From IMG/VR virus record IMGVR_UViG_3300033475_000120, positions 1 through 29,576 of that record: DNA of 29,576 nt; one strand, 5' to 3'. Below, one piece after another: positions 2,005 to 29,274 of the stretch. Source of the DNA: a virus. Taxonomy: Duplodnaviria; Caudoviricetes. Below the pieces are notes generated by a model. The model did no database searches. It saw only the letters and a list, made by a program, of their open reading frames with translations, and was not told the DNA's origin. Made by a program: the position numbers and the translations under genes. Within the stretch, counting starts at the first letter, position 1. The number at the start of each line of letters is the position of its first letter.

Positions 2005-2478
2005 ATGCGCTCTTTACTGTTGTCGTTATCTCTCTTATCGTTACCCTTGTTGGGCGGACTTCGCGCGCCTGAACGTTTAGGTACATTAGCCGTTGCTAAT
2101 ATGCCACATGGATTTGCAGTCATCAAGGATGGTAAAGTAAATACCATTGAACCAGACTGTGTCGATTCGATGCTGCGAAAAATGGATTTTAAGCAACGAA
2201 ACGCCTACTTGTTGAATGGTGGATCGCTGGAAATAAATCAAGCCAATACGGGCGAATATACTATCAAAACAGTTGCTAACCTTAAAGGTGGTGGCCCAAT
2301 TGCTGGTTGGATTGCTTGGGCAGTTGTTATGGCTCCTGGAGTTGTTATAATTTCTATTGTTAAGAAATTAGATAAAACAGGAACTGCTCCAACGGACAAA
2401 ATGTTTGATTGCTTAAAAAGCATTGCAAATGTAGCTAAGTCTTTTGGTGATACTGCTCCAATACCGATAGCAAAATAA
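2005..2478 (+). CDS. secreted/membrane protein with signal peptide and LKGGGP motif
   Basis: Hydrophobic N-terminus, internal NLKGGGP followed by a hydrophobic helix; AAGGA RBS. Confidence 0.75.
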   Translation: MRSLLLSLSLLSLPLLGGLRAPERLGTLAVANMPHGFAVIKDGKVNTIEPDCVDSMLRKMDFKQRNAYLLNGGSLEINQANTGEYTIKTVANLKGGGPIAGWIAWAVVMAPGVVIISIVKKLDKTGTAPTDKMFDCLKSIANVAKSFGDTAPIPIAK

Positions 2479-2681
2479 TGAACTCATTGATACAAGCATT
2501 CTTAAATCAACTCATATTATTTATAATTACGGCAGTCATGCATGTATATTATTTTTATATGGGAAGAACAGAAAACATAAACCCATTAAACAATAAAGCT
2601 GATTTGCTGTTGTTTATTATAGTGTGGTTTATTCTGGGAACATATGTTACCTGGAAGTTCAACTTAGGCATATTTGCATAA
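2478..2681 (+). CDS. small 2-TM membrane protein (67 aa)
   Basis: Two hydrophobic segments; TAATG stop/start coupling to the upstream gene. Confidence 0.7.
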   Translation: MNSLIQAFLNQLILFIITAVMHVYYFYMGRTENINPLNNKADLLLFIIVWFILGTYVTWKFNLGIFA

Positions 2682-2721
2682 GCATACTATTCCTTCTTAG
2701 CTCCTTACTAGGGTGTGATAG

Positions 2722-2764
2722 GCCCAGGGTTCACTGCTTACTAAAAACCCTGGGCATTTTCTTT
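2722..2764 (+). terminator. intrinsic terminator at the convergence of plus- and minus-strand units
   Basis: GCCCAGGGTT/AACCCTGGGC 10-bp stem followed by ATTTTCTTTT. Confidence 0.7.
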
Positions 2765-4497
2765 TAGTGCATCAGCTTTTCTTCAAGCATCCTGATTCTA
2801 TTAAGCAGATCAGTATTGATAGCTTGGAGTTCACCAATAAGCTGGCAATGTTTTTGAAATTCATTGAGTAGCATTGGAACCAGGTCATGGTATTTAACCG
2901 TTTCTGGCTCACCGTCTTTATATACAACAAGGTGTGGTGCAACTTCAGCCACTTCTTCAGCGATAAGACCAACAGATTTGTCTTCAGATGCATGAGCCTT
3001 GTAGTTGAATACTACTGGCCTTAAAGATCGAATAACATCGCTATATGAACCCATATCAACTATGTTGTCTTTCTTGGTACGAGAAGATGAAACGGTTCCA
3101 AGCTGACCAGCAGAGTCAATAAGAACCGCTATAGCGTTATTGTTTACCGTAGTGATACCACGAATACCATGGATGAATGTTTTATTGGTCTCACCAACAC
3201 CCGAACCAGTAGTGTTACCTATGCGTGTCACATTTGACTCGCCAGTAACACCTGTGGTAGAAGGTCCTATCAATATGTTCGATGATTCATTAGATGTATA
3301 AGCTGAACCCGCGGCAAAACCAAGAGCTGTATTGTAGGATCCAGTTACTAATCCTGTTCCACTGCCTGCTGAAGTGAAATTATCCTTTCCTACTCCTGTA
3401 TTTTGGACCCCAGAAGTCAAAAAATTCATTCCCACATCTCCAATAGAGATATTCCCCCCAACACCGTTATTTATACTCGCAAGTACACCTCCACCAATTC
3501 CTATGTTTCCTACTGTTGAAGTAGAAGAAATAGTAAAATTACCTGCCCCTTCTCCTAGGAAAATATTCGAACCATTAATAGCAGCTGATCCAGGGTAGTT
3601 ATGCAATATAATCTTGTTGGTTGATGCATTAGAGCCAATCGCAAGCTGTATTAATCCTGATGATCCAGCAACGCCAGTTGTTCCTATAATCGTGTTGTTT
3701 GATTCTGAACCCGTTAATGAAGACCCAGCAAGGTGACCAATTAAGATTGACTCTGATCCGGATACCAAACTAGTAGCTGCACCTTGTCCAATAATAGTAT
3801 TGTTACCAGCACCACCCGCTAATAAAGTAGCGCATCCTTCACCTATGATCGTATTATTACTTGATGACGTTAATGCAGGAGCGCTAAATGCCCCTAGAAC
3901 CGTGCAATTGGTAGAAGTTAAGGTTAGGTTACCCGAATTATCACCGATAATAGTGTTTAGATCGGCATCAGTAACAAGCAAATTAACATTGTTAGTGCTT
4001 CCTTCAAATTCAACTGATGAACCACATCGCAAGCTTGCAGTCTGAGCTTTTATGTTTAATACACCAGCTATTGGGGTTGCGGTACCAGAATCAGTAGGAA
4101 ATGATTGTGCGGCGACACCACCACCCACCAAAGATGCAGTTAAGGTAGATGTTCCTGGATTTCCAGTTATTGTTATTCCAACACCATCACCTACAACATT
4201 GATATTGCCCGCTGTAGGAGGGACTGCTCCTCCAGAATTGCCTGTTAATTCTAATACAGCACCCGAAGCGCCCGTTAACATAACCCAGGTAGCAACATTA
4301 CCCACTAAGGATACCAGCATCCATACTGTTTCAGTTGCAATATTAAGCCATATCGTTCCTAGATAAACGTTTTTTGAGTCATTGGGTGTTGGATCACGGG
4401 GTTTGGTTAAGAAGTCAGGAGGTTGCACAGCGTTCACGCCGGCATAGCTTAATGGCTCAAGACCATTAAGGCGTTGATTAATGTTAGGATTTGCCAT
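2764..4497 (-). CDS. tail fibre/spike with C-terminal peptidase S74 intramolecular chaperone
   Basis: Gly/Asn-rich NTxxG repeats; C-terminal SSRTKKDNI...LRPVVFNYK...GLIAEEV...VKYHDLVPMLL plus coiled coil. Confidence 0.85.
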   Translation of the reverse strand: MANPNINQRLNGLEPLSYAGVNAVQPPDFLTKPRDPTPNDSKNVYLGTIWLNIATETVWMLVSLVGNVATWVMLTGASGAVLELTGNSGGAVPPTAGNINVVGDGVGITITGNPGTSTLTASLVGGGVAAQSFPTDSGTATPIAGVLNIKAQTASLRCGSSVEFEGSTNNVNLLVTDADLNTIIGDNSGNLTLTSTNCTVLGAFSAPALTSSSNNTIIGEGCATLLAGGAGNNTIIGQGAATSLVSGSESILIGHLAGSSLTGSESNNTIIGTTGVAGSSGLIQLAIGSNASTNKIILHNYPGSAAINGSNIFLGEGAGNFTISSTSTVGNIGIGGGVLASINNGVGGNISIGDVGMNFLTSGVQNTGVGKDNFTSAGSGTGLVTGSYNTALGFAAGSAYTSNESSNILIGPSTTGVTGESNVTRIGNTTGSGVGETNKTFIHGIRGITTVNNNAIAVLIDSAGQLGTVSSSRTKKDNIVDMGSYSDVIRSLRPVVFNYKAHASEDKSVGLIAEEVAEVAPHLVVYKDGEPETVKYHDLVPMLLNEFQKHCQLIGELQAINTDLLNRIRMLEEKLMH

Positions 4498-4498
4498 G

Positions 4499-6250
4499 TT
4501 ACACTCCTTGCTTGGATTCTAATACTTCTATGCGTTTGATAGCTTTTTTAAGCTCTGAAAGCAAGAACCAAACAACCTCGTGGCTTTTAATTGCCATGTT
4601 TGCTGCATCATCTGATACCACGAGATCAGGCAGTATTTCCTTGAGGTCTTCAGCAATAACACCGTACGTAGTAATTCCTGGTTGTTTGATGTAATTAAAC
4701 TTAACGGGCTCAGCTTTTAAGATTGCGGAACTATCAAATGATTGAATGTTTTCTTTTACCAAACGGGATGAAGAAACAACACCAAGTTGCCCAGAACCAT
4801 CAACCAAAACGGGAACTGCCGCACCACCTGTTGTTACACCAGTAATACCATCAATAAAGCATGCTGTTTGAGACGTTGCATTGAGGAAATATCCAATACG
4901 AGTCACATTATTTTCGGTGGCTGTACCATAAGCACCACCAATTACGATATTTTGTGATTCACTGGTTGTATAGTTAGTACCCGATCCTGCCCCAACTCCG
5001 ATATTTCTTACGCCCGTGGTTAATTGATAAAGAGCAGATTGTCCCAATGCACAGTTCTGATCGGCGCCAGATCCCGAAGTAGTATAACTTTGCAACGAAC
5101 CCCAACCTAATGCCGTATTGAAATTCGCACTGGTCGCGGAAGCTCCCGAATTATAACCAATAAATGTATTGGCTAAAGGTGAAGTCGTTAAAGATGCTCC
5201 TGCCAGTACACCAAGAATAGTACATTGCGTGACGGAATTAGCTGCAAAACTATTATTCCCGCCCCCAATAGCAATATTGCTATTGGCATCAAATGAAGTT
5301 AATGTTTGGGTTGATCCGCTTCCTGTAAATGCCCATGTTGGTCCAACTTTAGTAGTTCCTTGTGCAGTAAAAGTAATAATGACTCCAGCTGCCGAACCAG
5401 AATCTCCATTAATTTGCAGAACGGGAGAAGAAGATGATGCTCCTAACTTACCATTAGAATCAACTGCGACAAGAGATCCTGAAACCGAATGACCAAATAT
5501 GCCATCAATGTAGCATGCTGTTTGCGTAGAAGCACCGGCATTAGTAAATCCAATGGATATAGCATTACTGGTTCCTCCATCTAAATTTGATGAACCCCTA
5601 CCAATAAATATATTGGCGTCTTGCGCACCTGTTATTCCCTGCCCGGAATTATATCCCACAAAGATATTGTTACTGGAAGTCGAGTTTAAGTTTGGTCCTG
5701 AAGAGTAGCCAATAAATGTATTATTCCCCCCTGAAACAATACTTGGACCGCTTCCAAAACCAATAAGCGTATTTTGATTTCCCGTCAGACCTGCTCCTGC
5801 TCCACTTCCTATAGCAATGGTACGAGATGAATTTCCCAAATTAAGATTACCGGCACCAGAACCAATAAGAATTACTGGCGTTGTTCCACCAGTGACATCA
5901 GGAAACGCTATACCTCTTGCTGATCCGAATGTTATAACGCCCTGATTGCCGCTCGTATTTGATGACGGGAGATTTACATTACCTGCAGAAAGAGTCACAT
6001 CTCCGGTAGTACATATTAGGGCCGGAGAACCTATAATTGAAGATAAATCTCCAAGGGTTATTGCGTTGTTGATAGCGAATGTGACAGTATTAGTTCCTGG
6101 ATTTCCCGCAGAGTTTAATCCATGGGAACCAGGTACCATGATGATACCACCCGCATCGGGGCCTACTTGTCCGCCTGTATTACCTTGTAAAAATTTTACG
6201 TTGCCCACACCGCCTCCTCCGCCAGATCCAGATCCTGATATTGATGACAT
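4499..6250 (-). CDS. second tail fibre/spike with peptidase S74 chaperone
   Basis: NTFIGY/NTALG repeats; C-terminal SSRLVKENI...PVKFNY...YGVIAEDL plus coiled coil. Confidence 0.85.
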   Translation of the reverse strand: MSSISGSGSGGGGGVGNVKFLQGNTGGQVGPDAGGIIMVPGSHGLNSAGNPGTNTVTFAINNAITLGDLSSIIGSPALICTTGDVTLSAGNVNLPSSNTSGNQGVITFGSARGIAFPDVTGGTTPVILIGSGAGNLNLGNSSRTIAIGSGAGAGLTGNQNTLIGFGSGPSIVSGGNNTFIGYSSGPNLNSTSSNNIFVGYNSGQGITGAQDANIFIGRGSSNLDGGTSNAISIGFTNAGASTQTACYIDGIFGHSVSGSLVAVDSNGKLGASSSSPVLQINGDSGSAAGVIITFTAQGTTKVGPTWAFTGSGSTQTLTSFDANSNIAIGGGNNSFAANSVTQCTILGVLAGASLTTSPLANTFIGYNSGASATSANFNTALGWGSLQSYTTSGSGADQNCALGQSALYQLTTGVRNIGVGAGSGTNYTTSESQNIVIGGAYGTATENNVTRIGYFLNATSQTACFIDGITGVTTGGAAVPVLVDGSGQLGVVSSSRLVKENIQSFDSSAILKAEPVKFNYIKQPGITTYGVIAEDLKEILPDLVVSDDAANMAIKSHEVVWFLLSELKKAIKRIEVLESKQGV

Positions 6251-17215: not shown

Positions 17216-17731
17216 TTATGCTAATGTTGCGCGTAAGTTGATTACCCACAAGTCATTAGTGATTCGTGGAACTTCAGCAAATTTATAGCCGACAGAAGCG
17301 TTAAGCGCTAATGGGCCATCATATATTGGTGGTCGATAGATAAAGCTTGCGGAATATCCATCTTGTTCAATACATGCATATGCTTCCATACCCACGCAGA
17401 AGATATTGTATACATTAGCTCCGTTGCTTGAAGCATTAGGAGTTACTGATCCAATAGAGCTGATAAGGAAACGAAGGTTACCAATAGCACCCCATTCTGA
17501 ACGCAATGCATTCATAGGAGCTGGATATTGGTTCTTTTGAATAAAACCAGCAACCGCATCCAAGTTACCCGTTAATTGGGTTGAGCATAATGCAAAGTAT
17601 GCATCACGAACTGGAGCTGTACCGAACTTATCTTCACCTTCGATGTTGTCCATGATTGTGTATGCATTGTTATTTAACAATGTACGCACAACAGCATCAA
17701 CATCTGAACGTGTGATTTCTGTTGGGTTATC
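17216..17731 (-). CDS. major capsid protein exon 3 (171 aa + stop)
   Basis: Begins GAT after terminal intron G: DNPTEITRSDVDAVVRTLL...EWGAIGNLRF...GPLALNASVGYK (N4 gp56-like MCP C-terminal motifs). Confidence 0.85.
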   Translation of the reverse strand, partial: DNPTEITRSDVDAVVRTLLNNNAYTIMDNIEGEDKFGTAPVRDAYFALCSTQLTGNLDAVAGFIQKNQYPAPMNALRSEWGAIGNLRFLISSIGSVTPNASSNGANVYNIFCVGMEAYACIEQDGYSASFIYRPPIYDGPLALNASVGYKFAEVPRITNDLWVINLRATLA

Positions 17732-18173
17732 CTTTTCTGTTACTTCAGCTTTCGCTTACTGACCTCTTCAGGCGGGGACTTTCTCTACTTATCCCTCATT
17801 GTGTTTCCACAATGTTCAGAGCACCGCATCCTTCGTGCATTTACATCCGTATCGTTGCAATTCCCACCAACCATCTTGATTTTGATGATAGGAGTGATAA
17901 CAGCGCGGAGGTTTTACAGGAAGGTCTTCTCGCTTGCTACGTTCAGGCTGTTTGAGTTTTCTGTTTTCTTCTTCAAGTTTTTTTATCTCTTCTCGATGTC
18001 TTTCTCGCGATCTTCTCTCAGAAGATTCTGCCAATTGCCTTGCGTTATTATCAAGAATCGATTTTACTATCCAAAAACCACTTACACTCATTCTTGCCCC
18101 TTGTTGCCGGTTAGCTATATGCCACTACGGTTTCCAAGTCTATCAGAGAAGATTTAAAAACGGCAATAATTCT
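17732..18173 (-). mobile_element. group I self-splicing intron 2 in MCP (442 nt)
   Basis: P1 AACGGU/GCCGUU with U.G at the splice site; P10 UUAUU/GAUAA; P3 UCUUCUC/GAGAAGA; P4 CUUG/CAAG; P9 CAUUGUG-GAAA-CACAAUG; ends in G; removal restores the frame. Confidence 0.88.
17816..18091 (-). CDS. intron-2 internal ORF (91 aa), charged/coiled-coil; not a recognisable homing endonuclease
   Basis: ATG right after AAGGGGCAAGA (SD-like); runs through the ribozyme core (QPERSKRED). Confidence 0.45.
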   Translation of the reverse strand: MSVSGFWIVKSILDNNARQLAESSERRSRERHREEIKKLEEENRKLKQPERSKREDLPVKPPRCYHSYHQNQDGWWELQRYGCKCTKDAVL

Positions 18174-18293
18174 ACCGTTCACACCGCCAACGCAGTTAAT
18201 GAAACCAGCAGTTGCTGCTAACATATCACGGGTTAGTTGGTCTTCTGTTTGACGAAGTGAAACACCCAAACGTGCCGCACATTCGTTTAATAC
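18174..18293 (-). CDS. major capsid protein exon 2 (40 aa)
   Basis: VLNECAARLGVSLRQTEDQLTRDMLAATAGFINCVGGVNG, fitting the long spine helix of an HK97-fold MCP. Confidence 0.85.
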
Positions 18294-18300
18294 CAATCTG

Positions 18301-18489
18301 TTACTTAAATGACCTAATTTCTTTTCTCATAAGCGCTTTGCAATTTTCTGGTTTACACATAAAGTGGGCTCCTGCGTTACAGTAACTTCCTCTAATATCC
18401 CAGCATTCGTACCAGGGCTTACCAAATTCTTGCTCCATCTGCTCATTAGTTATGAACTTAGGCGGGGACTTTCTCAACTTATCCCTCAT
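18301..18489 (-). CDS. intron-1 3'-domain ORF, Cys-rich (62 aa from ATG 18489)
   Basis: GGUGGA SD-like sequence in P9; MRDKLRKSPPKF...YECWDIRGSYCNAGAHFMCKPENCK. Confidence 0.35.
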   Translation of the reverse strand: MRDKLRKSPPKFITNEQMEQEFGKPWYECWDIRGSYCNAGAHFMCKPENCKALMRKEIRSFK

Positions 18490-18751
18490 GATGATTTCCA
18501 CCATGTTCAGAGCACCGCATCTCTGTACTACAATTTTTAAACGCATGTTCAAATTGTTTATCACTAATATCGATGAGTACAGAGTCTTCTCGCTTGCTAC
18601 GTTCAGGCTGATTGAAAGATTTTTTAACCGAATCTAGTTTAGAGTCAAGTTTGTAATAACAAGCTTCACAATATTCCCCAAATGCAGGATAATACATTGG
18701 ATTTTTTATTTTGCTTTGACATTTATCGCATTCGTAAAAAAATTCTTTCAT
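18479..18751 (-). CDS. intron-1 P6 ORF (90 aa), CxxC...CxxC zinc-ribbon-like
   Basis: CDKC...CEAC; ATG at the same position as the intron-2 ORF. Confidence 0.45.
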   Translation of the reverse strand: MKEFFYECDKCQSKIKNPMYYPAFGEYCEACYYKLDSKLDSVKKSFNQPERSKREDSVLIDISDKQFEHAFKNCSTEMRCSEHGGNHHEG

Positions 18752-18832
18752 TCTTGCCCCTTGTCACGATCGTCTTTACGCTACCGCTTCCAAGTCTATC
18801 AGAGAAGATTTAAAGACCCCATATTTTTGTTT

Positions 18833-19144
18833 AGGGTCTTGGTTTTGTAAGGTAACTTGCTCGTTCAATTGAACATAAGTCCCGTAAAACGAAATCTGGG
18901 CGTCAATGTCTACAGCGGTTAGATTTTGCGCTGGAGGTGTGATACCAGAGTTTCCTAGTGGAACCATTGCGGTATTGAGAGGATTATATCTACGCATACG
19001 AAGTGTATTACCACCGTTGCGAGGCATATTCTTCTTCATCGCAGGGATTTTGTGAATCATGTTAGGTACAGGCACTGAGAGCAGCTTGTAACTAAAGGAT
19101 TGCTGCACTGGCGATGGCAGAATACTTGTAGTAGTTATAGCCAT
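18833..19144 (-). CDS. major capsid protein exon 1 (104 aa), N4 gp56-like family
   Basis: AGGAG RBS; MPRNGGNTLRMRRYNPL...GITP...YG.YV motifs; downstream of scaffold. Confidence 0.88.
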
Positions 19145-28134: not shown

Positions 28135-28391
28135 TTCTTTCCTTTGCACTTTTGATCACAGTCAACACCATGTTTAGTTTCAATATTATGTTTAACTCTT
28201 TCGTTCCAGGGTATATAGCCCTCACCATGAGGATTGTGATAACAATGTATGGCATCTCCACAGCATTTCTCTAAGGTAGGCATGGGACACATTCTATCTG
28301 AATTGCGGGCAACCAGCTCAGCTTCATTGAGTGAGCTTTTGCGCTCCATAACAGGAAAACGACAACATTGTTCTAACCGTGGGTCTATCAT
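28131..28391 (-). CDS. Cys-rich hypothetical protein (86 aa)
   Basis: ATGA coupling to upstream DUF551 gene. Confidence 0.6.
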   Translation of the reverse strand: MIDPRLEQCCRFPVMERKSSLNEAELVARNSDRMCPMPTLEKCCGDAIHCYHNPHGEGYIPWNERVKHNIETKHGVDCDQKCKGKK

Positions 28392-28576
28392 GGTTTTGGT
28401 ATATCCTTAAAATGCATCCAATGAGTTATTCTATAGCCCGGCTCTTGGTTATCAAACATATAGGCAGTCCAATGTTTATATTCGGGATAATATTTAGATG
28501 TCCAACATTGAACACCATCGGTTACCAGTACATATTCTTTGTCAGGCATCCTGTCTTTTACATTTATCCAGTTCAT
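28388..28576 (-). CDS. DUF551-like protein (62 aa)
   Basis: MNWINVKDRMP...VLV...ITHWM. Confidence 0.8.
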   Translation of the reverse strand: MNWINVKDRMPDKEYVLVTDGVQCWTSKYYPEYKHWTAYMFDNQEPGYRITHWMHFKDIPKP

Positions 28577-28869
28577 TTAGTCTCCGGATTCAACGGGAAT
28601 TCCATCCAATGGGTTATTTCATATTCTTCTTCTGAACATGGAAAATCCCATCTATCGACTGCGCACCAATCCCAAGAATGATCACCTTTTGCTTGATACC
28701 AATCAACCAGTATCTTATCGGCTGGAATTCTCAACATTACACTATATTTAGGGCCAGCATAATTCAGTTTATGGGGATGCGATCCTTTTAAGCAATCTTC
28801 ACAAAAACGAGCAGTCAAATATTCTTGTCCTGCTTTAGGCATCCTGTCTTTCACGCTTATCCAATTCAA
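28573..28869 (-). CDS. DUF551-like protein (98 aa)
   Basis: MNWISVKDRMP...ITHWMEFP; TTG start with AAAGGA RBS. Confidence 0.8.
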   Translation of the reverse strand: MNWISVKDRMPKAGQEYLTARFCEDCLKGSHPHKLNYAGPKYSVMLRIPADKILVDWYQAKGDHSWDWCAVDRWDFPCSEEEYEITHWMEFPLNPETK

Positions 28870-29142
28870 GTTGTTCCTTTCGTATTCGGTATTTCAGGTA
28901 AGGGCATCCAGTGAGTCACTATATGTTCTGAAATGGGAGTTGATTTATCCCAAGGAGTAAAATAATTGGAACATATACGCCATTTTCCATCTTGATATCT
29001 GCCAAAAGCTGTACCTTCAAGCAAATAAGGCTTAACATGAATATTAATAAGAACCCAAGGAGGGACGGCATACCTATCTATTGATACATATTCAGGAAGT
29101 CTCTCTTTCACGCTTATCCAATTCAAGTTGTTCCTTTCGTAT
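28847..29142. repeat. 39-bp perfect direct repeat (28847-28885 and 29104-29142)
   Basis: TCTTTCACGCTTATCCAATTCAAGTTGTTCCTTTCGTAT occurs twice, 257 bp apart. Confidence 0.9.
28866..29126 (-). CDS. DUF551-like protein (86 aa from TTG 29126)
   Basis: MNWISVKERLP...VTHWMPLPEIP; same RBS/TTG as the neighbouring gene. Confidence 0.8.
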   Translation of the reverse strand: MNWISVKERLPEYVSIDRYAVPPWVLINIHVKPYLLEGTAFGRYQDGKWRICSNYFTPWDKSTPISEHIVTHWMPLPEIPNTKGTT

Positions 29143-29274
29143 AATGCGATATTTGGCCATGCATTCATCAGAGCACCATTGTATCTGTGATTGGCGTGTT
29201 GTTGGGTACTTTTTATAGCATACATAGCAAAGCTTTTTCGTTGGCTTATCATTTCGGGGTGACAATACTTGCAT
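29092..29274 (-). CDS. small zinc-finger-like protein (60 aa)
   Basis: GGAG RBS; CYVC...WCSDEC. Confidence 0.6.
   Translation of the reverse strand: MQVLSPRNDKPTKKLCYVCYKKYPTTRQSQIQWCSDECMAKYRIIRKEQLELDKRERETS

Follow-up and report, generated by a model that had tools for sequence, protein, structure and literature searches.

The window, i.e. the whole stretch of DNA analysed here, is a 29.6-kb phage contig with a P22-like portal gene. Its major capsid gene, which receives the database name N4-gp56 family through the intronless relative L444, was found in three pieces (Table 1). Joining the three exons gave a protein of 315 aa, which aligned to the L444 protein without any gap and with 97% identity. 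The segments between the exons are each preceded by an exon U and have a G as last base.

Table 1. Features of the interrupted capsid gene and of its two introns, in window coordinates
Feature	Position	Strand	Remarks
Capsid exon 1 (N4-gp56 family)	18833..19144	-	frame continues into intron 1, stop at 18776
Group I intron 1, 539 nt	18294..18832	-	after exon U, final G; exon joining compared with L444
SD-like AAGGGG, intron 1	18757..18762	-	formed by the P4'/P6 strand
Intron 1 P6 cargo, 47 codons, CxxC..CxxC	18611..18751	-	7-bp closing stem over the start
Intron 1 conserved core strand P6'-J6/7-P7-P3'	18584..18610	-	read as QPERSKRED
Full intron 1 ORF, 90 aa	18479..18751	-	via P7, P3', P8 and P7' into P9
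Intron 1 second relay ORF, 62 codons, ATG at 18489	18301..18489	-	spans the long P9 insert
Capsid exon 2	18174..18293	-	frame continues into intron 2, stop at 18111
Group I intron 2, 442 nt	17732..18173	-	exon joining
SD-like AAGGGG, intron 2	18097..18102	-	P4'/P6 strand
Intron 2 P6 cargo, 47 codons	17951..18091	-	N-terminal half of an accessory protein, matches P0128
Intron 2 conserved core strand, nine codons	17924..17950	-	placed where P0128 has four linker residues
Intron 2 P8 insert, 31 codons	17831..17923	-	C-terminal Cys/His half of the same protein
Full intron 2 ORF, 91 aa	17816..18091	-	open frame, crosses P7, P3', P8
Capsid exon 3	17216..17731	-	exon joining compared with L444

The intron family

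Judged from their sequence, the two inserts are group I introns of the self-splicing type. Neither matched any Rfam model, the group I model included, even at an E-value of 10; given the long inserts, this is a limit of the model. Relatives were gathered with exact core motifs (99 stretches in viral contigs, 9 in genomes, at least 125 in metagenomes, and further ones). Of 531 core hits, 236 were duplicates, 57 had no P3 motif upstream, in 8 the P4/P6 region could not be parsed and 1 had another core in between; the 229 that remained are distinct introns. L140 and L141, on a contig as long as the window, had been removed before counting. Since exact motifs were used to find the introns, and these are related to each other, the counts reported below do not represent independent events.

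Helices were numbered, and one P7 pair assigned to the guanosine site, after what we take to be the general group I structure. P3 was fully paired in all 229 introns, with 17 variants and compensatory changes, a pairing that the parser did not demand. Two-sided changes were also found in the P4 and P6 helices, for which the parser demanded full pairing, so that only the variants are informative there. P7 was paired in 222 of 222 introns, including the G-C pair of the guanosine site. It contains one extra bulged base (T in 192, C in 27 and A in 10 of the 229 introns), placed directly after the G of the guanosine-binding pair (18599 and 17939 in the window), and the pairs below it are changed; sister introns with a canonical P7 exist. 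A P1 helix with a U.G pair at the 5' splice site was present in 87 of the 91 introns with mapped junctions, the mapper itself demanding U and G at the junctions.

These 91 introns occupy 33 sites of one capsid gene, mostly without an endonuclease. The core motif was present in 27 of 80 related capsid loci, and absent from 53. In five related capsid loci, the upstream sequence matched a portal protein, at a weak threshold. Part of the core is apparently duplicated within one intron region in L003, L024 and L223, a possible route for placing a core strand inside a gene. Among MAG contigs, the motif was found in 9 stretches whose labels (Parachlamydia, Chlamydiia, Babeliales, Bacteroidota, Actinomycetota and an archaeon) are mixed, probably due in part to misbinning; Rho is present in 4 of 5 motif-bearing MAG genomes, from which nothing firm follows for the host. 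Related cores and exons occurred in contigs of four runs, in which the central cargo bins had no depth; these contigs are not informative on expression.

Open frames along the intron

In each intron of the window an ATG, at 18751 or 18091, follows AAGGGGCAAGA, and CAGCCTGAAC begins at 18610 or 17950, so that both P6 stretches measure 141 nt. A recheck of the sequence agreed with the initial annotation on the coordinates, the starts, the two stop-free stretches and the frame shared by both, QPERSKRED. The closing stems it had described were also present in the predicted fold, with 7 bp between 18750-18744 and 18619-18613, and 5 bp between 18090-18086 and 17957-17953. For 178 inserts, own 5' and 3' ends paired at -6.15 kcal/mol, compared to -3.23 +/- 0.11 with swapped partners. 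Own ends thus pair better with each other than with those of other inserts, which places the start within a tailored P6a stem.

The equal length of the two stretches, for which chance had been considered from the start, turned out to be due to chance. The 178 related P6 ORFs span 60 to 264 nt with a median of 141, only 3 of them measuring exactly 141 nt; two random members of the family are equal in length 2.2% of the time, and at the other loci with two cargo introns equal lengths were found in 0 of 11 cases. A cassette of fixed length, measured by a 141-nt ruler as both inserts of the window could suggest, is hardly credible against these numbers.

The SD-like strand was found in 196 introns. 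A start lies nearby in 189 of them, at a spacing of 5 to 7 nt in 169. In 180 of the 189 the frame opened is the QPERSKRED one, and 3 more join them with a better-chosen start (183/189 in total); the other open frame is used by 3, and 3 stop before the core, to which L104, from an earlier parse, adds one more self-contained case. Related inserts were open in 184 of 188 cases, vs 4.8 expected from shuffles. A gene that ends on its own would be well served by the third frame, in which J6/7 offers a stop, yet this frame is used by one intron at most (L028, with its stop at the insert's end). In the relatives with a canonical P7 both other frames stop, and all 7 parsed small cargo ORFs read through. 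The read-through frame extends 30 to 288 nt (median 105) beyond the start of P6'. The picture of self-contained P6 cassettes is not sustained, as the ORFs have lost their own stop and cross P7, P3' and P8.

Short forms without any ORF also exist, namely 7 of the 196 SD-type introns and about 30 that combine a canonical P7 with AAGGGG. The introns can thus do without cargo, and the SD-like motif is primarily a strand of the structure, later co-opted. We discarded as a rule that this motif marks cargo, given the 30 or so empty canonical-P7 introns; it does hold within the bulged-P7 set, where introns with AGGCGC were empty in 18 of 18 cases. QPERSKRED is also unlikely to be a required peptide, since canonical-P7 members read QPERLSE and three introns use another frame. 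Sigma-70-like sites inside the introns numbered 8, for 7.3 expected, phage late promoters lying outside the model.

Coverage by open frames was also observed in the other loops. Among 112 long P8 inserts (at least 45 nt), 90 were open, 16 stopped within the last three codons and 6 stopped early; all 6 of the latter, read by eye, have an overlapping ATG or GTG and an open frame beyond. Short P8 loops were open in 55 of 61 introns. Long P5 inserts were covered to at least 65% by one ORF in 18 of 20 cases (mean 0.79, vs 0.42 when shuffled), and P5 ORFs end near the P6 start or run into it. The exon frame of phase-0 introns mostly ends 18 to 32 nt before the P6 start. The longest uncovered gap per intron had a median of 54 nt, compared to 155 with shuffled loops (n=82), one intron retaining a gap of 166 nt.

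A P9 motif that usually contains a stop was found in 81 introns, with TAG in 74, TAA in 2 and TTG in 5. Intron 1 of the window has TTG at this place, which opens the second ORF over its long P9 insert; this ORF stops 7 nt short of the 3' splice site and had no Pfam match. The long P9 inserts of L015, L105, L163 and L290 are not covered by a frame. In that of L048 (about 475-590 nt), a sigma-70 promoter close to the consensus precedes a sense ORF that has Cys motifs and, by eye, may encode an HNH-type endonuclease.

The encoded proteins

The 178 cargo ORFs fell into 141 families. PHROGs matched 9 of 150 cargo ORFs, all of unknown function. No nuclease family was detected among these 150 ORFs with PHROGs, nor among 89 further ORFs with Pfam, and the cargo of the window gave no nuclease match. 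Of 12 chosen cargo ORFs submitted to Pfam, 7 were DUF551, 6 above the cut-off and some as whole domains. Three tandem, overlapping, free-standing DUF551 genes, of the same family as some intron cargo, lie at 28388-29252 of the window. The P6 cargo at L189:347-700 uses the alternative open frame and encodes an antidote (HTH) protein of an addiction module, of the HI1420 type. For the P6 cargo of intron 1, Pfam and PHROGs gave no match and a homologue search returned only the window's own protein; its Atlas look-alikes are unnamed viral proteins, and intron 2 gave no usable feature match.

Pooled dN/dS was 0.25 for P6 cargo (17 pairs, range 0.02 to 1.12, selected by protein similarity) and 0.19 for P8 cargo (14 pairs); part of this purifying-selection signal may predate capture. 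Different capsid sites carry one and the same cargo family. For one family, the homologues P0124 and P0125 end without the core peptide. The idea that cargo family A2 is confined to introns, based on 7 of 7 intronic matches in IMG/VR, was abandoned when tail-less homologues were found.

In intron 2 a gene is divided by the core. Residues 6-47 encoded in its P6 match residues 3-44 of P0128 (38%, pairwise E 7e-6), and its P8 part matches residues 49-79 (55%, pairwise E 2e-13), so that the nine core codons replace a linker of four residues. Matches to the intron 2 protein were found in four small proteins lacking the core, and P0131 is free-standing, in an array of overlapping small genes upstream of a related capsid gene. 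Both halves thus match one protein that also has a free-standing counterpart, and we conclude that an ordinary accessory gene was threaded through the ribozyme. P0127 was rejected as a homologue, as it is a repeat protein whose match results from summed weak repeats. In L496, the C-terminal domain of the intron 2 protein family is found in P8 at another capsid site. One P8 family stands behind unrelated P6 cargo, which suggests recombination at the shared core.

The inserts therefore appear to be small accessory genes rather than decayed endonucleases, given their dN/dS of 0.25, the lack of nuclease matches in the searches above and the core-less homologues. Free-standing counterparts, for which a search had been advised, were found in P0131 and the DUF551 genes, and P0124 and P0125 are tail-less. 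The proposal of a platform for swappable small proteins is partly sustained by cargo diversity, purifying selection and core-less homologues; what it loses is the fixed length and the self-contained cassettes.

Remnants of homing endonucleases, whose ends would have crept into the core, were also considered as a source of these ORFs. L606, a canonical-P7 relative, does carry a sense LAGLIDADG gene with the same SD and frame, an arrangement that is probably ancestral and hints at the origin of the start site. Endonuclease ORFs are reported to creep into intron cores, with regulation excluding ribosomes from the core (PMC3073962, in the text available). Such creep predicts extensions of variable length, not one frame (same source). 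With 141 unrelated cargo families and no nuclease among the 150 and 89 ORFs scanned, we consider this origin very improbable for the cargo as a whole. A variable, dispensable core extension was not seen, as one frame is used in 183 of 189 introns and the part of intron 2 beyond the core is a conserved domain.

Proposed passage of ribosomes across the core

Some introns of the family contain an endonuclease gene on the opposite strand. By their motif we take these to be LAGLIDADG genes, a label confirmed only for the sense gene of L606. Over these antisense genes the sense frame is kept open; in P6 it measures 143 to 161 codons in all five cases, and in P9 about 300 codons in both cases. In the 7 full-length cases, the antisense genes use 0 or 1 TTA, CTA or TCA codons among 23 to 39 Leu/Ser codons, vs 8 and 11 in two sense-oriented controls. 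Random synonymous recoding of the antisense genes yielded a mean of 3.5 to 12.9 sense-strand stops. Two of the five P6 antisense cases are not significant alone, L303 (0.067) and L582 (0.63, with only 59 codons scored). L672:2321-2854 (+) has a sense frame of 177 codons that covers an antisense endonuclease-like ORF (2324-2806, minus strand), to which Pfam gave no name, and enters a canonical core. Coverage of the sense strand itself thus seems to be selected, as far as codon usage can tell. In L480, L482, L486 and L488 the capsid ORF seems to be extended at its N-terminus by about 110 codons with much Phe, Ser and Ile, resembling the frames that shadow antisense genes.

The reading that we favour, and consider somewhat probable, is that captured accessory genes were fused through the core because the nascent intron has to be covered by ribosomes ahead of its folding and splicing. 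Having read beyond the exon, ribosomes would terminate some 20-30 nt short of the P6 start and begin again at this start while it is exposed. Rho acts on untranslated RNA, and a relay of ribosomes would protect the nascent transcript from Rho termination or from decay. The same ribosomes would hold P7/P3' open until the 3' partner strands are made. Folding of the core would then bury the SD and the start in P4/P6/P6a, upon which translation would end and the intron splice. A captured gene would be kept only if fused in frame, captures ending before the core being lost; the proteins encoded would be a further target of selection, and P6 and P8 parts could be exchanged between introns by recombination at the 27-nt core that these share. 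The coupling of translation to folding or splicing is our inference. In its simple form the Rho argument is probably weakened, because the downstream exons would also be free of ribosomes before splicing. Further points against this reading are the long P9 inserts left uncovered, the empty introns and the impaired splicing of td in T4 when ribosomes occupy its core (PMC3073962; PMC2988022, both in partial text). More tentatively, the ribozyme may need translation from end to end, core included, for its own expression, and this rule may have made the intron a gene-shuffling scaffold, in which captured phage accessory genes are wound around the active site and their halves recombined to give new late proteins.

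Alternatively, it may be that the introns are an expression platform only, the proteins being selected and ribosome transit doing nothing for the RNA. P8 parts have no start of their own in this explanation, modules recombine at the core, and one frame would have become standard. The low dN/dS in both P6 and P8, as well as the P8 families found behind unrelated P6 cargo, are expected from it, and a gene spanning P6 and P8 does need the QPERSKRED frame. It does not account for the sense frames of 143 to 300 codons over antisense endonucleases, for the restart of all 6 P8 inserts with an early stop or for the read-through when P8 is empty (55 of 61 short loops open), and we judge it rather unlikely as the whole explanation.

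Cassette platforms of the integron type gather exchangeable, very diverse small genes at one fixed expression site. Unlike these, exchange would here occur by ordinary recombination and the genes fuse to the platform itself; we know of no integrase or cassette recombination site for this intron family. The accepted view, to our knowledge, is that bacterial group I introns exclude ribosomes from their core and carry mobility enzymes only. The present family, with about 190 sequences and 141 unrelated cargo families, appears to do the opposite. It opens to testing the old question of how self-splicing introns persist in bacterial mRNAs that are coupled and highly expressed, and one-codon changes could tell coverage apart from the function of the protein. 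It also suggests that small phage proteins expressed together with the capsid form a store so far unrecognised, and that nature offers a scaffold whose sequence serves at once as catalytic RNA and as protein linker.

No description of such cargo-through-core introns was found in the open-licence literature. The available text of PMC3984707, PMC2988022, PMC3706429, PMC4227781 and PMC11878797 mentions no non-nuclease gene read through the core. The closest precedent is the td intron of T4, where the I-TevI ORF likewise begins in the P6 loop and enters P6a/P7, and where the initiation region can be sequestered by RNA structure (PMC3073962; PMC2988022, both in partial text). According to the same sources, td differs in that its ORF encodes a mobility endonuclease and overlaps by 20 nt, variable extension is expected and ribosome entry is minimised, ribosomes on the core impairing splicing. 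Unlike td, the present introns contain unrelated non-nuclease ORFs, an SD that is part of a core helix, and a fixed frame.

The block of td splicing by ribosomes on the core (PMC3073962, in the text available) would also fit a regulatory brake, in which translation via P7 delays splicing and ties capsid synthesis to the host translational state or to the late stage. A start and SD within helices, competing with initiation, would suit such a brake. Against it, the frames that shadow antisense genes frequently end ahead of the core (L244, L303), and the presence of the motif in 27 of 80 capsid loci, over 33 sites, is more in keeping with a parasite that is tolerated than with a switch that is needed; we find a brake improbable, and retain coverage of the nascent intron as our preferred reading.

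A probable group I intron with an opposite-strand LAGLIDADG gene, gp14, is likewise present in the major capsid gene of mycobacteriophage LittleE, where capsid intron splicing was demonstrated by RT-PCR; small sense-strand cargo is not mentioned in the part of the article available (PMC3706429). Intron 2 DNA had no significant match among GenBank phages (best E 0.1), and so gave no sign of kinship with LittleE. IStrons also combine a group I ribozyme with foreign coding sequence and make an insertion harmless, their cargo being a transposase at the intron 3' end (PMC4227781; PMC3984707, in partial text). Unlike IStrons, the present introns have cargo in P5, P6, P8 and P9 and across the core. 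No transposase was found among the cargo scanned, and the introns of the window hold only ORFs of 62 to 91 aa without IS200/605 or IS607 match.

Some other genes of the window were noted by eye. The gene at 2005-2478 (+) has a start resembling a signal peptide, followed by a GG motif and then a hydrophobic tail; it is overlapped by the gene of a small membrane protein at 2478-2681 (+). Both are opposite to the structural operon, and the pair resembles a secreted peptide with its partner. At 2764-4497 and 4499-6250 lie two tail-fibre-like genes, rich in Gly, Asn and Thr, with similar C-terminal domains.
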